From contig CAVYGB010000008.1 of the NCBI GenBank assembly GCA_963767925.1, forward strand, positions 32,001-96,000: a stretch of 64,000 nt of DNA, in the 5' to 3' direction. The position numbers and the translations under genes are program-made. The stretch's first letter is position 1. Each line of letters begins with the position of its first letter. A model generated the notes under the pieces. That model saw only the letters and a list, made by a program, of their open reading frames with translations, was not told the origin of the DNA and did no database searches. The DNA comes from an uncultured delta proteobacterium (GTDB taxonomy: Bacteria > Myxococcota_A > Polyangia > Fen-1088). This document shows, in pieces, positions 12,061 to 17,016 of this stretch.

Positions 12061-12753
12061 TCAGTGCTTGCCGTACTCCAGCTCGGTGCCGCTGCGCTGG
12101 CTGACGATGTAGGCCTCCATGGCGCGCATGCGGGGGTCGTCCGCGTCCATGGGTTTGGCCCGGACCGGGTGCTCGAGGCACCAGTTGATCATGTCCCGCA
12201 GGAGGGCCACCCGGCCGATCTGGGTCTGGAACTTGGGGTAGGTCTCGGGGTGGGTGTTGGCGGCGTTGGGGTGGCACATGTCGCAGGAGACGGCCACCGT
12301 GCTGCCGAGCTCGTCGGCGCTGTGGAAGACCTTGGAGCCGGCCACCACCAGCCGTTCGGTCTCGCGCTTCCAGGCCAGGAGGTCCTTCTCCCCGAACTGG
12401 CGGTAGGGGTGGCCGGCGGCCTGGGTCGAGCGGGCCAGCAGGTCCTTGTTGTCGGCGGCGGGCAGGAAGGTGCGGCTCTTGCGCTCCTCCGCCTCCCAGT
12501 CGATCTGGGGGTTCTTGCCCTTCCATTTGGCCATCAGGTCGTCAGCGATGGCCTGGCCGGTGGTGCGGTCGAGGGGGGCGTTGGCCGGGATGCTCGTCGT
12601 CGTGTGGTTGTCGCAGAGCTTGACCTCGGTGCGGCCGCTGCCTGCCTCGCCGACCGCGACGGCGGGGGCGGAGGAGGGGGCGGGGGGCGAGGCGGGTTGG
12701 CTGGTGGCGCAGGTGGTGGCCAGCAGCAGCGGGAACAGCTTGATGATGCGCAT
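12061..12753 (-). CDS. periplasmic monoheme c-type cytochrome, SoxA/TsdA heme-domain-like (probable His/Cys ligation)
   Basis: Signal or lipoprotein-like N-terminus; CDMCH; YPKF...LRDMINWC...MRAMEAYI parallels the TsdA/SoxA domain pattern. Confidence 0.8.
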   Translation of the reverse strand: MRIIKLFPLLLATTCATSQPASPPAPSSAPAVAVGEAGSGRTEVKLCDNHTTTSIPANAPLDRTTGQAIADDLMAKWKGKNPQIDWEAEERKSRTFLPAADNKDLLARSTQAAGHPYRQFGEKDLLAWKRETERLVVAGSKVFHSADELGSTVAVSCDMCHPNAANTHPETYPKFQTQIGRVALLRDMINWCLEHPVRAKPMDADDPRMRAMEAYIVSQRSGTELEYGKH

Positions 12754-12763
12754 GGGGTGGTCC

Positions 12764-13897
12764 TCAGTAGCTTCCGGCGTTGGGCTTGGGCGAGGCCTGC
12801 TTGCGGCCGGCGCTCGCCAGGTAGGCGCTGGTGACGGTCATGGGGTTGCGGTTCCAGAGGTTGTAGAGCTTGTCCACCACCGCGCCGGGGTGGACCACGA
12901 TCTGGCCGTCCCCGCAGCCGTCGTTGGGGTTGAAGGGATCGGGGCGGTTCATCTGGATGGTGAGCTCGGGCAGCCCCTGGGGGGCGTAGGGCCAGGGCCA
13001 GGCGGTCGAGAGCATCCCGTGGAAGTGGATGTTGCCGATCCGGTTGGTCAGCACCTGGTGGGTGTGGCCGTGGATGACCACCACCTTGCGGAACTTCCGC
13101 AGCAGGGCCTGCACCTCGTCGGCGTCGTCGGTCCAGAAGTTCCACTGCTTGTAGAGCTTGTAGAGGGGGGAGTGGGAAAACACGATGAGGGGGGTGCTGG
13201 CGGAGACCCCGGCGAGGTCCTTCTTCAGCCAGGCCCGCTGCTCGGCCCCCACCGTGAAGGGGTTCTGCTTGCCGTTGTCCAGGCCGGCCACCGTCATCAT
13301 GCGCTCCATGGGGGTGAGCCCCCTGGCCGTCCAGAAGTCCGCCTCCACCACGCTGTTGAGCACGACGAAGTGCACCCCCTTGTGGTCGAAGGCGTAGGTG
13401 GGCTGCCCGAAGTGGTGGCGCCAGCGCTCCCCCATGTCGAGGTACCAATCGTGCTCGCCGACCATCATGCGCACGGGGGCCTTCACGCTCTTGAGAATCT
13501 CCGCCCCCAGGTCGAGCTCCTCCTTCTGCCCGAGCTGGGCCAGGTCGCCGCCGTAGAGCACGAAGTCCGGCTGGGGGTCGAGGGCGTTGACGTCCTCGAC
13601 CGCCCGGAGCAGCGCGCGCACGAAGCGGTCGTTGATCTCCTTCTTGTAGAGGTGCGAGTCGGAGATGTACGCGATGCGGAAGCCGGGGGTGGCGGCCTCG
13701 GCTCCCCGCACGTCGATCGGCATGAAGGAGTGGGGGTTGATGGTCACCCCGCTGGCCAGCGCGGCGGCGGCGGCCGCGCCGCTGGCCCGCAGGAAGTCCC
13801 GCCGCTCGAGCCGGCGCAGGCCCCGCAGGGCCTCCTCGCGCTCGGCGAGGTAGCGGCTCTCGACGCTGGGCAGGCCGTTGGGACGTCGGATCTTCAT
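12764..13897 (-). CDS. Tat-exported calcineurin-like metallophosphoesterase
   Basis: ERRDFLRA Tat motif; DSH, GGD, GEHD, FSHSP, HGHTH. The start overlaps the upstream stop (ATGA at 13894-13897). Confidence 0.9.
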   Translation of the reverse strand: MKIRRPNGLPSVESRYLAEREEALRGLRRLERRDFLRASGAAAAAALASGVTINPHSFMPIDVRGAEAATPGFRIAYISDSHLYKKEINDRFVRALLRAVEDVNALDPQPDFVLYGGDLAQLGQKEELDLGAEILKSVKAPVRMMVGEHDWYLDMGERWRHHFGQPTYAFDHKGVHFVVLNSVVEADFWTARGLTPMERMMTVAGLDNGKQNPFTVGAEQRAWLKKDLAGVSASTPLIVFSHSPLYKLYKQWNFWTDDADEVQALLRKFRKVVVIHGHTHQVLTNRIGNIHFHGMLSTAWPWPYAPQGLPELTIQMNRPDPFNPNDGCGDGQIVVHPGAVVDKLYNLWNRNPMTVTSAYLASAGRKQASPKPNAGSY

Positions 13898-15333: not shown

Positions 15334-15413
15334 CAACGTCCGGCCGGTGCTGGCAACGATACTTCGGTGTCGAGAACGACGACCCGAACCCTTGCCACAA
15401 CGCCGGGCCGGTG
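15334..15413. promoter_or_regulatory. three copies of CAACG-N6-CGGTG (candidate enhancer sites)
   Basis: Copies at 15334-15349, 15354-15369 and 15398-15413; near-palindromic; about 75-155 bp from the sigma-54 promoter. Confidence 0.65.
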
Positions 15414-15414
15414 C

Positions 15415-17016
15415 ATGCTAGCCCCCGTGACCCTGGCCACCCCCGACGCCCTCGAGCTGGCAGCCCGCACCTTGCCGGCCCTCGCGCCGCTGGCCTTCGG
15501 CGCCGCCTCGCTCGAGGAGGTGCTGCGGCGGGCGCTCGATTCGCTGCAGGTGGTGGTCCCTTACGACCTGGCGGTCATCCTCGACCTGGGCCTGGACGAC
15601 CAGCTCAGCGTGCGCACGGCGATCGGCCGCCTGGCCGACGATCGGGTGCGCCGGCACCGCATCCAGCTCGAGCGCTTCCCCACCATCAAGCGGGCCATCG
15701 AGACCCGGCGGCCCATCGCCCTGCTCGAGGCGCAGCATCAGTCCGACGAGGGCGATCCCTACGACAGCGTCCTCGATCTCCCCGACGGCCACTCCTGCAT
15801 GGTGGTGCCCCTCTATTCGGGCGACCGCGCCCTCGGCGTGATGACCTTCGATCGGGCGGTGTGCGAGCCGTACCGGCCGGAGATCGTGCAGCTCGCCGCG
15901 GTCTACGGCCAGCTCCTGGCCCTGGCCATCCTCTACGCCGAGCAGGCCGCCGCGCTCGACCACCAGCAGCGCCGCCTGCGCGAGCAGAACCGCCTGCTGG
16001 TCGAGGAGACCGGGGGCGGGGCCTTCGCCGCCGCCAGCCTCGAGCAGACCCGCTCACCGGTCATGGGCCGGCTGGTGCGCCAGGCCCGCCAGGTGGCGGG
16101 GACCAGCCTGCCGGTGCTGATCCAGGGTGAGACCGGGGTGGGCAAGGAGCTGCTCGCCCGGGCCCTGCACGCCTGGAGCGGCCGGCGCGACGAGGGGCTG
16201 ATCACCTTGAACTGCGCCGCTATCCCCGACAGCCTGATCGAGAGCGAGCTGTTCGGGCACGTCAAGGGGGCCTTCACCGGCGCGGCCAGCGCCCGGGCGG
16301 GACGGTTCCTCACCGCCAACGGGGGCACCCTGTTCCTCGACGAGATCGGCGAGATGCCGCTGCCCGCCCAGGCCAAGCTCCTGCGCGTCCTGCAGGAGGG
16401 GGCCTTCCAGCCGGTCGGCTCGGACCGCTCGGTCAAGGTCGACGTGCGCATCCTCGCCGCCACCAACGTCGACCTGGAGACGGCGGTCGAGGAGGGCCGC
16501 TTCCGCCAGGACCTCTATTACCGCCTCGACGTCTTCCCACTGGAGATCCCCCCGCTGCGCGAGCGGCCCGAGGACATCGCCCCCATCGCCGCCATCGTGC
16601 TGGACGGCATCGCCGGGCGCACCGGGCGTGGGCCCTGGAGCCTGCCCCCCGAGGTCGTCGTCGCGCTCGAGCGCCACGCCTGGCCGGGCAACGTGCGCCA
16701 GCTCGTCAACGCGCTCGAGCGGGCCACCCTGCTGGCGCCTCCCGGCCCCATCCCGGACGAAGACCTGCTGGCCCCGCTGGGCCGCCGCCGCCGCCAGCCG
16801 GCGCCTCCCCCCGCCGCCGCCCCGGCCGGTACCGAGCGCGAGGTGGTGTCCCTGGAGGAGATGGAGCGCCGGTACATCCGCGACGTCCTCCGCCGGACCG
16901 GCGGTCGCATCTACGGCCGGGGCGGCGCCGCCGAGGCCCTGGGCCTCAAGCCGACCACCCTCCAGAGCCGGCTGCGCAAGCTCGGCATCGACCGCCGCCC
17001 GCCGCCCGCGGAGTGA
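15415..17016 (+). CDS. sigma-54-dependent activator with NorR-like GAF, AAA+ domain and FhlA-type HTH
   Basis: GAF with DPYD...HSCM...GVMTFD; GETGVGKE, ESELFGHVKGAFTGA, LFLDEIG, WPGNVRQL, GAAEALGLKPTTLQSR. Alternative start GTG 15427. Confidence 0.92.
   Translation: MLAPVTLATPDALELAARTLPALAPLAFGAASLEEVLRRALDSLQVVVPYDLAVILDLGLDDQLSVRTAIGRLADDRVRRHRIQLERFPTIKRAIETRRPIALLEAQHQSDEGDPYDSVLDLPDGHSCMVVPLYSGDRALGVMTFDRAVCEPYRPEIVQLAAVYGQLLALAILYAEQAAALDHQQRRLREQNRLLVEETGGGAFAAASLEQTRSPVMGRLVRQARQVAGTSLPVLIQGETGVGKELLARALHAWSGRRDEGLITLNCAAIPDSLIESELFGHVKGAFTGAASARAGRFLTANGGTLFLDEIGEMPLPAQAKLLRVLQEGAFQPVGSDRSVKVDVRILAATNVDLETAVEEGRFRQDLYYRLDVFPLEIPPLRERPEDIAPIAAIVLDGIAGRTGRGPWSLPPEVVVALERHAWPGNVRQLVNALERATLLAPPGPIPDEDLLAPLGRRRRQPAPPPAAAPAGTEREVVSLEEMERRYIRDVLRRTGGRIYGRGGAAEALGLKPTTLQSRLRKLGIDRRPPPAE

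Follow-up and report, generated by a model that had tools for sequence, protein, structure and literature searches.

Genes and features of the locus

The window analysed here, that is, the whole stretch of 64,000 nucleotides taken from contig CAVYGB010000008.1 of assembly GCA_963767925.1 (positions 32,001 to 96,000 of the forward strand), comes from an uncultured delta proteobacterium that GTDB places in the Polyangia and has a G+C content of ~71%. Between its positions 12061 and 17016 lie three tightly packed minus-strand genes, which encode a di-haem enzyme of the cytochrome c peroxidase (CCP)/MauG family, a protein of the metallophosphoesterase fold (MPE), and a mono-haem cytochrome (CYT), and which are transcribed divergently from the gene of a GAF/sigma-54 activator across a 189-bp spacer (Table 1). 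We describe below the activator and its control region, the distribution of the three genes (ccp, mpe, and cyt; hereafter the trio, or the cassette when considered across genomes), and the proteins that they encode, and we argue that the locus probably represents a hydrogen peroxide (H2O2) stress module.

The packing of the trio proposed in an initial annotation of this DNA agrees with the gene calls: the stop of the di-haem gene and the start of the MPE gene share an ATGA overlap, and CYT starts after a gap of 10 bp behind the MPE stop. The ATG at 15415 was preferred over a GTG at 15367 as the start of the activator based on the alignment of its homologues, and the spacer therefore spans positions 15226-15414. 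The longest possible start of the di-haem open reading frame (ORF) is a TTG at 15267. Export signals, which had been annotated on all three proteins of the trio, were recovered as well. The MPE carries a twin-arginine (Tat) signal with the motif RRDFLR by profile (TIGR01409, 24.5 bits vs. a cut-off of 16.7; Pfam TAT_signal, 21.6, slightly under its cut-off of 22.7), and the N-termini of the di-haem enzyme (MPNRSRIRLIPLLAAGASLG) and of CYT are hydrophobic and signal-peptide-like when read by eye; CYT may also be lipid-anchored (LLLATTC), although this is uncertain. With its GAF/sigma-54 activator, three enhancer sites, -24/-12 promoter, and exported three-gene operon, the locus has the make-up of the self-contained sensor/output module that had been annotated.

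Table 1. Genes and control elements of the locus (positions in the window).
Feature	Position	Strand	Description
CYT	12061-12753	minus	230 aa; mono-haem SoxA/TsdA-type cytochrome
MPE	12764-13897	minus	377 aa; Tat-exported metallophosphoesterase-fold protein
Di-haem CCP/MauG-family enzyme	13894-15225	minus	443 aa counted from ATG
Sigma-54 type -24/-12 element CGGCACGGACCGTGC	15257-15243	minus	GG-N10-GC pattern
PexR-type site 3 CACCGGCCGGACGTTG	15349-15334	minus	CACCG-n6-CGTTG
PexR-type site 2 CACCGAAGTATCGTTG	15369-15354	minus	CACCG-n6-CGTTG
PexR-type site 1 CACCGGCCCGGCGTTG	15413-15398	minus	CACCG-n6-CGTTG; abuts activator ATG
PexR-type enhancer-binding protein	15415-17016	plus	GAF, AAA+ sigma-54 interaction domain, Fis-type helix-turn-helix (HTH)

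Activator and control region

The activator consists of the Pfam domains GAF_2, Sigma54_activat, AAA_lid_14, and HTH_8, and its best NCBIfam match is NorR (aligned positions 23-511 of 512); the initial annotation had regarded it as a NorR-like activator that may respond to nitric oxide (NO). The score of the NorR match (388 bits), however, stays below the cut-off of 476, and none of the 68 matches of the enhancer-binding protein (EBP) type in the genome exceeds that cut-off; the activator is the only one of the 68 that covers the NorR-type GAF region. Its metal-site pattern is H-x5-D-x2-D-x8-H-x-C-x17-D (in the window, H-QSDEG-D-PY-D-SVLDLPDG-H-S-C, then 17 residues, then D), and the spacing, mapped by means of published residue numbering, equals that of H102/D108/D111/H120/C122/D140 in PexR. 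In Myxococcus xanthus, PexR (MXAN_1565), likewise a GAF/sigma-54 activator, senses H2O2 through a Zn/Fe site made up of H102, H120, C122, and D140 and binds three tandem CACCG-n6-CGGTG repeats upstream of the sigma-54 promoters of katB and ahpC; its authors consider it and NorR to be evolutionarily related (Bastida-Martinez et al., Nucleic Acids Res 2025; PMC12754779). Among 34 aligned homologues of the activator, 33 have the first His of the pattern, and none lacks the H-x-C pair or the last Asp; E. coli NorR, in contrast, is without the PexR-specific His and has a three-residue insertion ahead of H111. We consider it very likely that the activator is a member of the PexR family, and by homology it would be a sensor of H2O2.

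The DNA between the activator and the trio is consistent with this assignment. The -24/-12 element and the three repeated sites that had been annotated in the spacer are both present, with the element ~85 bp from the repeats and downstream of them in the operon direction. The pattern CACCG-n6-CG[GT]TG gives 277 single matches in the 9.34-Mb genome and a single cluster (at least two matches within 80 bp), namely the three sites of this spacer; hence, the triple repeat is not due to chance. In the window, the loose -24/-12 pattern turns up no more often than expected (39 matches vs. 55), and the promoter call therefore rests on position and on equivalent elements elsewhere: GG-N10-GC elements lie between the repeats and ccp in 4 of the 4 homologous loci with a divergent activator (L042, L072, L075, and L076), and the element of L075 (TGGCACGGACTGTGC) is near-identical to CGGCACGGACCGTGC of the window. 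From the -12 GC to the ccp ATG there are 17 bases in the window, 12 in L042 (L042:4655-4684), and 14 in L075 (L075:4673-4704), and in L072 and L076 ccp starts 25-38 nt after the promoter element. Transcripts from these promoters would have little or no leader, which is unusual for sigma-54 promoters. On the opposite side of the spacer, site 1 ends one base before the activator ATG, and the activator may therefore be autoregulated and have a leaderless mRNA of its own, as has likewise been proposed for pexR adjoining ahpC (PMC12754779); a consensus scan found no sigma-70-like promoter for the activator.

Alternatively, the activator might be a NorR-like NO sensor that drives a non-canonical, nitrosative-stress output, as initially annotated. 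The non-haem iron residues of NorR are R75, Y98, D99, H111, and C113 (PMC2941729), and of these Y98, D99, H111, and C113 are invariant among the homologues of the activator and R75 is kept in four out of five, including the one in the window. In addition, three enhancer sites, with the consensus GT-(N7)-AC, are found at norV (PMC2831303), an architecture like the one seen here. Since the NorR and PexR families share most of the metal site, cross-reactivity with NO is conceivable, and the PexR authors indeed state that Fe centres of the PexR/NorR type can cross-react with NO and H2O2 (PMC12754779). The conservation of the NorR residues also counts against our assignment. On the other side stand, besides the sub-cut-off score, the extra His, and the missing insertion, the DNA sites themselves: GT-(N7)-AC occurs only twice in the spacer (vs. 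0.65 expected; 13% of shuffles reach two), and both occurrences fall at junctions of PexR-type sites. The genes that homologues of the activator face also argue against NO. A homologue of the GAF domain is encoded in 35 of 301 sampled genomes of the phylum, in one copy each, and at 29 of these loci we scanned the ORFs on the opposite strand that lie within 1.5 kb and encode 100 aa or more. A divergent antioxidant gene was found at 15 of them, encoding AhpC with or without AhpD, a peroxiredoxin-glutaredoxin (Prx-Grx) fusion, a KatG-type peroxidase, rubrerythrin, superoxide dismutase, or Dps; the other 14 were without such an antioxidant match, and none of the 29 gave a match to an NO reductase or flavohaemoglobin in the scanned ORFs. 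As initially annotated, norVW, norB, and hmp are all missing from the locus of the window, where the divergent operon is ccp-mpe-cyt, and in other lineages the cassette adjoins OxyR-like or PerR-like genes (below). The NO reading, sensor and nitrosative-stress output taken together, appears very unlikely to us.

Distribution of the cassette and its regulators

To describe how the trio is distributed, we searched with the MPE. Of the 8,000 candidates scored, 4,754 proteins passed E ≤ 0.001; the best 120 matches are mostly at least 70% identical to it (range, 63-100%) and come from several phyla. In a collection in which each of 185,579 species is represented by a single genome, relatives of the MPE are encoded in 462 stretches, 80 of which were kept as loci for neighbourhood analysis, and 70 of these 80 are informative, i.e., they have room on both sides of the MPE gene and at least 1 kb upstream. 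The loci belong to Myxococcota, Planctomycetota (including Brocadiaceae bins), Gammaproteobacteria (including Chromatiales/USC-gamma bins), Binatia, Desulfobacterota, Acidobacteriota, and Methylocapsa aurea, among others. The order and strand di-haem enzyme-MPE-cytochrome are kept in 69 of the 70 informative loci, with identities to the window proteins of 65-78% for the MPE, 50-73% for the di-haem enzyme, and 46-79% for the cytochrome. The exception (L037) has no di-haem gene and keeps the MPE and the cytochrome, together with a short Fur-like fragment (23.6 bits); its bin is labelled Enterobacteriaceae, a label that looks doubtful. The trio is single-copy in the genome of the window. Among sequencing runs, matches were listed for soil-metagenome DNA contigs only, with small shares, and for no RNA data set.

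The regulators next to the cassette, which were identified by clustering of the flanking ORFs and profile searches, differ among these loci. A full-length PexR-type activator adjoins the trio in only 4 of the 70 informative loci, all of them Myxococcota, in addition to the window, so that the trio is mostly found without this regulator; 16 loci (out of 80) have a PerR-like gene of the Fur family instead, directly upstream of the di-haem gene and mostly on the same strand. The best NCBIfam matches of these Fur-family neighbours are PerR models, every score being below cut-off. If the PerR-specific Asp positions are mapped onto them as we assume, all 16 carry the second Asp, and 10 of the 16 carry the first. 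The use of these Asp residues as a criterion for PerR is quoted in PMC12754779. An OxyR-like LysR gene adjoins the cassette in 6 of the 80 loci (four of these being among the 70); OxyR is its best match, again below cut-off, and the OxyR-like genes carry a C-x8-C pair in the context GHC(F/L)x..Q....C. A gene for an extracytoplasmic function (ECF) sigma factor is next to the trio in four loci.

The synteny described by the PexR authors provides a link to the literature. They report pexR divergent from ccp in Chondromyces, some Polyangium, and Haliangium ochraceum, and oxyR-ccp in Minicystis rosea and Chondromyces apiculatus (PMC12754779). Two of our loci come from C. apiculatus (L005) and M. 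rosea (L019), and both carry the trio beside an OxyR-like gene; they correspond to the two oxyR-ccp cases, and therefore the published 'ccp' is the first gene of the trio. The PexR link found here adds a third independent peroxide-type regulator for the cassette. The presence of PerR-like, OxyR-like, or PexR regulators beside the trio points to peroxide, and we regard a peroxide-linked role of the cassette as likely.

The genome of the window provides further context for the regulator. Its ahpC gene is directly preceded by a PerR-like gene of the Fur family (C8:2820265-2821373), and it also contains an OxyR-like LysR gene (C8:1258455-1259306), a KatG-type gene (C6:384799-385842), and a rubrerythrin gene (C8:1174147-1174536). 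The genome may thus combine as many as three kinds of peroxide regulator, and with ahpC beside the PerR-like gene and the other peroxide genes elsewhere, PexR looks dedicated to the trio.

The Fur-family neighbours also bring up a distinct explanation, in which the cassette would serve iron/Fenton control: periplasmic Fe(II) would be oxidised or otherwise handled with H2O2, the MPE would bind iron, and the control would be of the Fur type. The 16 loci with a Fur-family gene upstream, 6 of which have Glu at the first PerR Asp position, are in line with this explanation, and the fold matches of the MPE to purple acid phosphatases (PAPs) and its more anionic Glu ligand (both below) would suit Fe(III). 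A bacterioferritin/rubrerythrin-like gene between the PerR-like gene and the di-haem gene in L008, L010, and L012 (Pirellulaceae/Anammoximicrobium bins), making a five-gene unit perR-bfr-ccp-mpe-cyt, fits as well. However, the Fur-family genes match PerR models best, the partners of the OxyR-like and PexR types in other lineages sense peroxide and not iron, and the conserved neighbours include no iron transporter. We therefore consider iron control highly improbable.

A few other neighbours were observed. In eight gammaproteobacterial loci (L021, L022, L023, L026, L038, L041, L044, and L053), the trio is followed immediately, on its own strand, by a gene for protein-L-isoaspartate O-methyltransferase (protein repair), and in seven of these eight a CDP-alcohol phosphatidyltransferase-like gene lies upstream; the eight bins are close relatives, and hence both linkages may be lineage synteny only. 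Partial matches to sigma-54 activators ~5 kb upstream in L021, L026, L038, and L044 cover the AAA+ domain only and were discarded as unrelated EBPs. In the window, a gene for a response-regulator receiver plus EAL protein (cyclic di-GMP phosphodiesterase; 10821-12041, plus strand) is convergent with CYT, with 19 bp between the two stops, and no link of this gene to the trio was seen in the other loci.

Proteins encoded by the cassette

The di-haem enzyme matches PF03150 (CCP_MauG) with 175 bits, and its two haem motifs (C105xxCH109 and C249xxCH253) are invariant among its orthologues. Also invariant, in 71 out of 71 sequences, is a peroxide pocket of Q158/P162/E168, which based on spacing we take to be equivalent to Q103/P107/E113 of MauG. 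Tyr356, likewise present in 71 out of 71, stands in the alignments where MauG has Tyr294 and the Nitrosomonas europaea peroxidase has a Met (chain position 258). The best sequence matches of the N-terminal, peroxidatic domain in the PDB are classical peroxidases (E 1e-44 to 1e-37), and the closest chain to the C-terminal domain is 6E1C, titled 'Di-heme enzyme' and presumably MbnH. Leu148 (window ~14782-14784) stands in an F-x-DGR motif at what we take to be the position of the inter-haem bridging Trp of bacterial cytochrome c peroxidases (bCCPs) and MauG; 40 of the 71 orthologues have Leu at this position and 31 have Trp. The best NCBIfam models are those of MauG (TIGR03791, 197 bits vs. a cut-off of 444) and MbnH (TIGR04039, 200 vs. 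363), neither of which is reached, and the match to the structure of BthA (6NX0, 55.7 bits) is weaker than those to bCCPs and MauG.

The MPE is the most conserved member of the trio, with nine invariant Trp and six invariant Tyr residues. It matches PF00149 (Metallophos, 62.5 bits), and its motifs D80-x-H82, G-D118, H242, and G-H278-x-H280 are invariant. Motif III (G-E148-H-D) reads GEHD in 79 out of 79 sequences and aligns with GNHD of GpdQ, which means that the Asn metal ligand is replaced by Glu. Foldseek searches with an AlphaFold2 model (mean predicted local distance difference test score, pLDDT, of 76) returned GpdQ, Rv0805, and PAPs as the best matches (E 3.5e-11 to 1e-6; 12-19% identity), and a protein atlas search returned generic 'metallophosphoesterase' clusters only. 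Among longer metagenome proteins, two natural fusions, P0121 (745 aa) and P0122 (744 aa), join an N-terminal CCP_MauG domain to a C-terminal Metallophos domain; the MPE part is 48-49% identical to that of the window, and the bridging Trp is retained (FWDGR). The fusions have no Tat signal and, therefore, the MPE domain is apparently exportable unfolded via a Sec signal in that subfamily. A third di-haem-MPE fusion match (P0123) was garbled, and two MPE-cytochrome fusions (P0128 and P0129) had garbled Arg-rich junctions and truncated ends; we regard these as products of frameshifts or of faulty gene calls and left them out of the count. Complex prediction of the di-haem enzyme and the cytochrome together with the MPE as partner gave a score of 0.30 against a mark of 0.32, which counts neither for nor against binding.

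The main alternative to a detoxifying role is a maturation system. MauG acts in the biosynthesis of tryptophan tryptophylquinone (TTQ) and MbnH in the formation of kynurenine in MbnP. By analogy, the di-haem enzyme would not mainly detoxify H2O2 but use it to modify the MPE (e.g., by oxidising a Trp or Tyr close to the dimetal site or by forming a cross-link there), and the modified MPE, served by the cytochrome, would be the real effector. Tyr356 at the position of MauG Tyr294, MauG and MbnH as best NCBIfam matches, the alignment of the C-terminal domain with 6E1C, the conservation of the MPE with its invariant Trp and Tyr residues, and the natural fusions are all in agreement with this idea, and oxidation of the neighbouring phosphatase PhosA has been proposed by the authors who described the di-haem enzyme BthA (PMC6405878). 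However, three unrelated peroxide-type regulators (PexR, OxyR-like, and PerR-like) fit stress protection better than housekeeping maturation, the bridging Trp for MauG-type bis-Fe(IV) chemistry is Leu in the window and in most orthologues, and the scores lie far under the MauG and MbnH cut-offs. Maturation in this form is, in our view, rather unlikely.

The cytochrome was annotated as SoxA/TsdA-like, which is supported by its match to PF21342 (SoxA/TsdA cytochrome c domain, 45 bits) and by a conserved Cys: its single haem motif (C157xxC160H161) and C192 are invariant in 75 out of 75 sequences, and C192 aligns with both Cys114 and Cys222 of Rhodovulum SoxA, which we take to be haem ligands. C192 may thus provide the sixth ligand of the CYT haem, judging from its position. 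A homologue of 410 aa (P0124) has a long N-terminal tandem-repeat linker rich in Gln, Ser, and Thr before its haem domain, which suggests a tethered, membrane-anchored form of the cytochrome.

Given such a cytochrome, and since SoxB is also a Tat-exported dimetal hydrolase of the MPE fold, one could envision a reduced version of the Sox pathway, in which the cytochrome would oxidise thiosulfate, sulfide, or a thiol, the MPE would hydrolyse the sulfonate adduct, and the di-haem enzyme would dump the electrons on H2O2. The occurrence of the cassette in Chromatiales-type and Desulfobacterota bins would also agree with sulfur chemistry. The profile evidence, however, is at odds with it: the cytochrome scores 37.5 bits with the SoxA model of NCBIfam (TIGR04484) vs. 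a cut-off of 110, and the resemblance of the MPE to SoxB that had been suggested initially gained no specific support, as Pfam found no 5'-nucleotidase C-terminal domain (5_nucleotid_C) in the MPE and E. coli 5'-nucleotidase ranks 41st or lower among its fold matches, behind GpdQ, Rv0805, and PAPs. Furthermore, no SoxX-, SoxY-, or SoxZ-like neighbour clusters were seen in the 80 loci, and the regulators indicate peroxide, not sulfur. Sulfur oxidation is the most improbable of the explanations considered here.

A model for the module

What the analysis shows directly is the structure and conservation of the genes, the residue patterns of their products, the DNA sites, and the exchange of regulators among lineages. 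From these observations we propose, with moderate confidence, that the locus is an H2O2 stress module composed of a PexR-type sensor and a periplasmic haem-dimetal output. By homology to M. xanthus PexR, dimers of the activator would bind the three CACCG-n6-CGTTG sites, and the resting GAF domain, with Fe2+ or Zn2+ held by His, His, Cys, and Asp, would block the AAA+ domain. H2O2 would lead to the loss of the metal from the GAF domain, and the freed AAA+ domain would then remodel sigma-54 RNA polymerase at the -24/-12 element and switch on the trio, the message of which is probably almost leaderless. The trio itself would be an old cassette that many lineages have in common. In the periplasm, H2O2 would react at the five-coordinate haem of the MauG/BthA-type di-haem enzyme, within the conserved Gln/Pro/Glu pocket, and the His/Tyr haem would store the resulting oxidising equivalent. 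This equivalent would be passed to, or drawn from, an obligate partner, i.e., the Tat-exported MPE with its Glu-for-Asn dimetal site, and the Cys-ligated cytochrome would act as an electron relay. The net result would be that periplasmic peroxide is consumed by haem-dimetal redox chemistry, as opposed to plain hydrolysis of phosphate esters. That H2O2 is the signal is inferred from homology to PexR, and the output part of the model from features of the three protein sequences together with the regulators that accompany the cassette elsewhere; the way in which electrons flow and what the MPE does are inferred likewise.

Several observations weigh against this model, in addition to the NorR-type residues mentioned above. 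About 40 of the 70 informative loci have no recognisable regulator adjoining the trio, and the Fur-family neighbours, none of which reaches a PerR cut-off and 6 out of 16 of which have Glu in place of the first Asp, may in some cases sense iron rather than peroxide. M. xanthus PexR itself is outside the alignments, so that the mapping of its residues depends on published numbering and spacing, and the 3' half-sites read CGTTG here vs. CGGTG in the published PexR sites. With the -12 GC only 17 nt from the ccp ATG, either the transcript is near-leaderless or the start is a different one. As for the output, the MPE keeps most of the catalytic residues of phosphoesterases, a plain peroxidase would need no MPE, and His/Tyr di-haem enzymes are classically protein-modifying oxidants (MauG and MbnH), not detoxifiers.

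For the middle gene of the cassette, in distinction from the peroxide link of the whole, any one specific role can be put forward at most as a tentative possibility. The role that we would suggest is that the MPE fold has been recruited for peroxide-linked redox chemistry, either through an H2O2-driven, protein-derived cofactor on the MPE or through exchange with its metal centre, with the cytochrome as a third partner; this remains a possibility on the unlikely side, and it overlaps with the maturation idea discussed above. If correct, it would represent a new class of haem-dimetal periplasmic enzyme system and provide the first function for a pair of the BthA/PhosA type.

The findings have implications at several levels. 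The regulatory half of the locus is a further example of a switch that was described only in late 2025, in this case with a PexR apparently dedicated to one operon, and three independent peroxide-type regulators mark a widely conserved periplasmic cassette as part of the peroxide response. Solving the function of the trio would show what MauG-like enzymes do outside cofactor biosynthesis, would explain the long-standing BthA/PhosA puzzle, and could show the dimetal phosphoesterase fold in a use not seen before. Finally, the spacer and the activator offer a compact, putatively H2O2-responsive pair for the construction of sensors.

Comparison with known systems

Among single proteins of the cassette, the di-haem enzyme resembles canonical bCCPs (those of Pseudomonas aeruginosa and N. 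europaea, and Shewanella CcpA) in its peroxidatic N-terminal domain and Gln/Pro/Glu pocket, and it differs from them by having Tyr for the axial Met of the electron-transfer haem, Leu for the bridging Trp, and a strict two-gene linkage. With MauG and MbnH it shares the CCP_MauG fold, the Tyr at the axial position, the pocket, and a partner encoded next door; however, the curated cut-offs are not reached, no mau or mbn genes were seen nearby, and the partner is an MPE-fold protein. The MPE has the fold and the metal motifs I, II, IV, and V of GpdQ, Rv0805, and PAPs, but differs in the Glu for the motif III Asn, the long Tat signal, the obligate link to two haem proteins, and the low identity given above. 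The cytochrome is similar to SoxA/TsdA by PF21342 and by an invariant Cys aligned with the two SoxA cysteines, as opposed to which it has one haem domain in 230 aa, a SoxA score far below cut-off, and no SoxX, SoxYZ, or TsdB partner seen.

As for the activator, E. coli NorR has the same GAF/AAA+/HTH architecture, 38% identity, the iron-site residues, and three enhancer sites with a sigma-54 promoter, and is distinguished by the profile cut-off, the absence of the extra His, loop length, DNA site, and the norVW, norB, or hmp genes that do not adjoin the activator here. M. xanthus PexR is closer in design, with the same architecture, identical metal-site spacing, three tandem CACCG dyads, a sigma-54 promoter, and a divergent, peroxide-related target. 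Overall identities of PexR orthologues to the M. xanthus protein are reported to be 47-98%, control of ccp by OxyR to be common, and pexR-ccp synteny to exist in some Sorangiineae and Haliangium (PMC12754779). The differences from M. xanthus PexR are that the target here is ccp-mpe-cyt, not ahpCD or katB, that the sites end in CGTTG, and that ahpC adjoins a PerR-like gene. Hence, the initial description of an undescribed system can be kept in part: the output formed by the trio is uncharacterised, whereas the pexR-ccp arrangement was already in print (PMC12754779). We found no paper on the trio in a literature search that reached few subscription journals, and 'metallophosph' has no occurrence in the main text of the PexR paper, in which the cytochrome was not searched for (PMC12754779).

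The closest parallel to the output is BthA of Burkholderia, a His/Tyr di-haem enzyme in which Ser replaces the bridging Trp and which forms a stable bis-Fe(IV) state and still reduces H2O2; bthA always adjoins the gene for a putative exported PAP, PhosA, and the function of the pair is described as undefined (Rizzolo et al. 2019; PMC6405878). The same source states the His/Tyr ligation of MauG and the importance of a Trp between the haems (PMC6405878). Both systems thus combine a periplasmic His/Tyr di-haem enzyme with an exported MPE of the PAP type, and both are without the inter-haem Trp (Ser in BthA, Leu here). They differ in gene order, which is reversed (bthA is downstream of phosA), in the SoxA-like cytochrome, none being reported for BthA/PhosA, and in distribution, BthA being described as restricted to Burkholderia vs. 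the occurrence of the trio across many phyla, with Trp in 31 of the 71 orthologues. Given also that the match to 6NX0 amounts to 55.7 bits only, which speaks against orthology to BthA (cluster IIIb of the sequence similarity network, SSN), the resemblance between the trio and BthA/PhosA is one of design, not of orthology.

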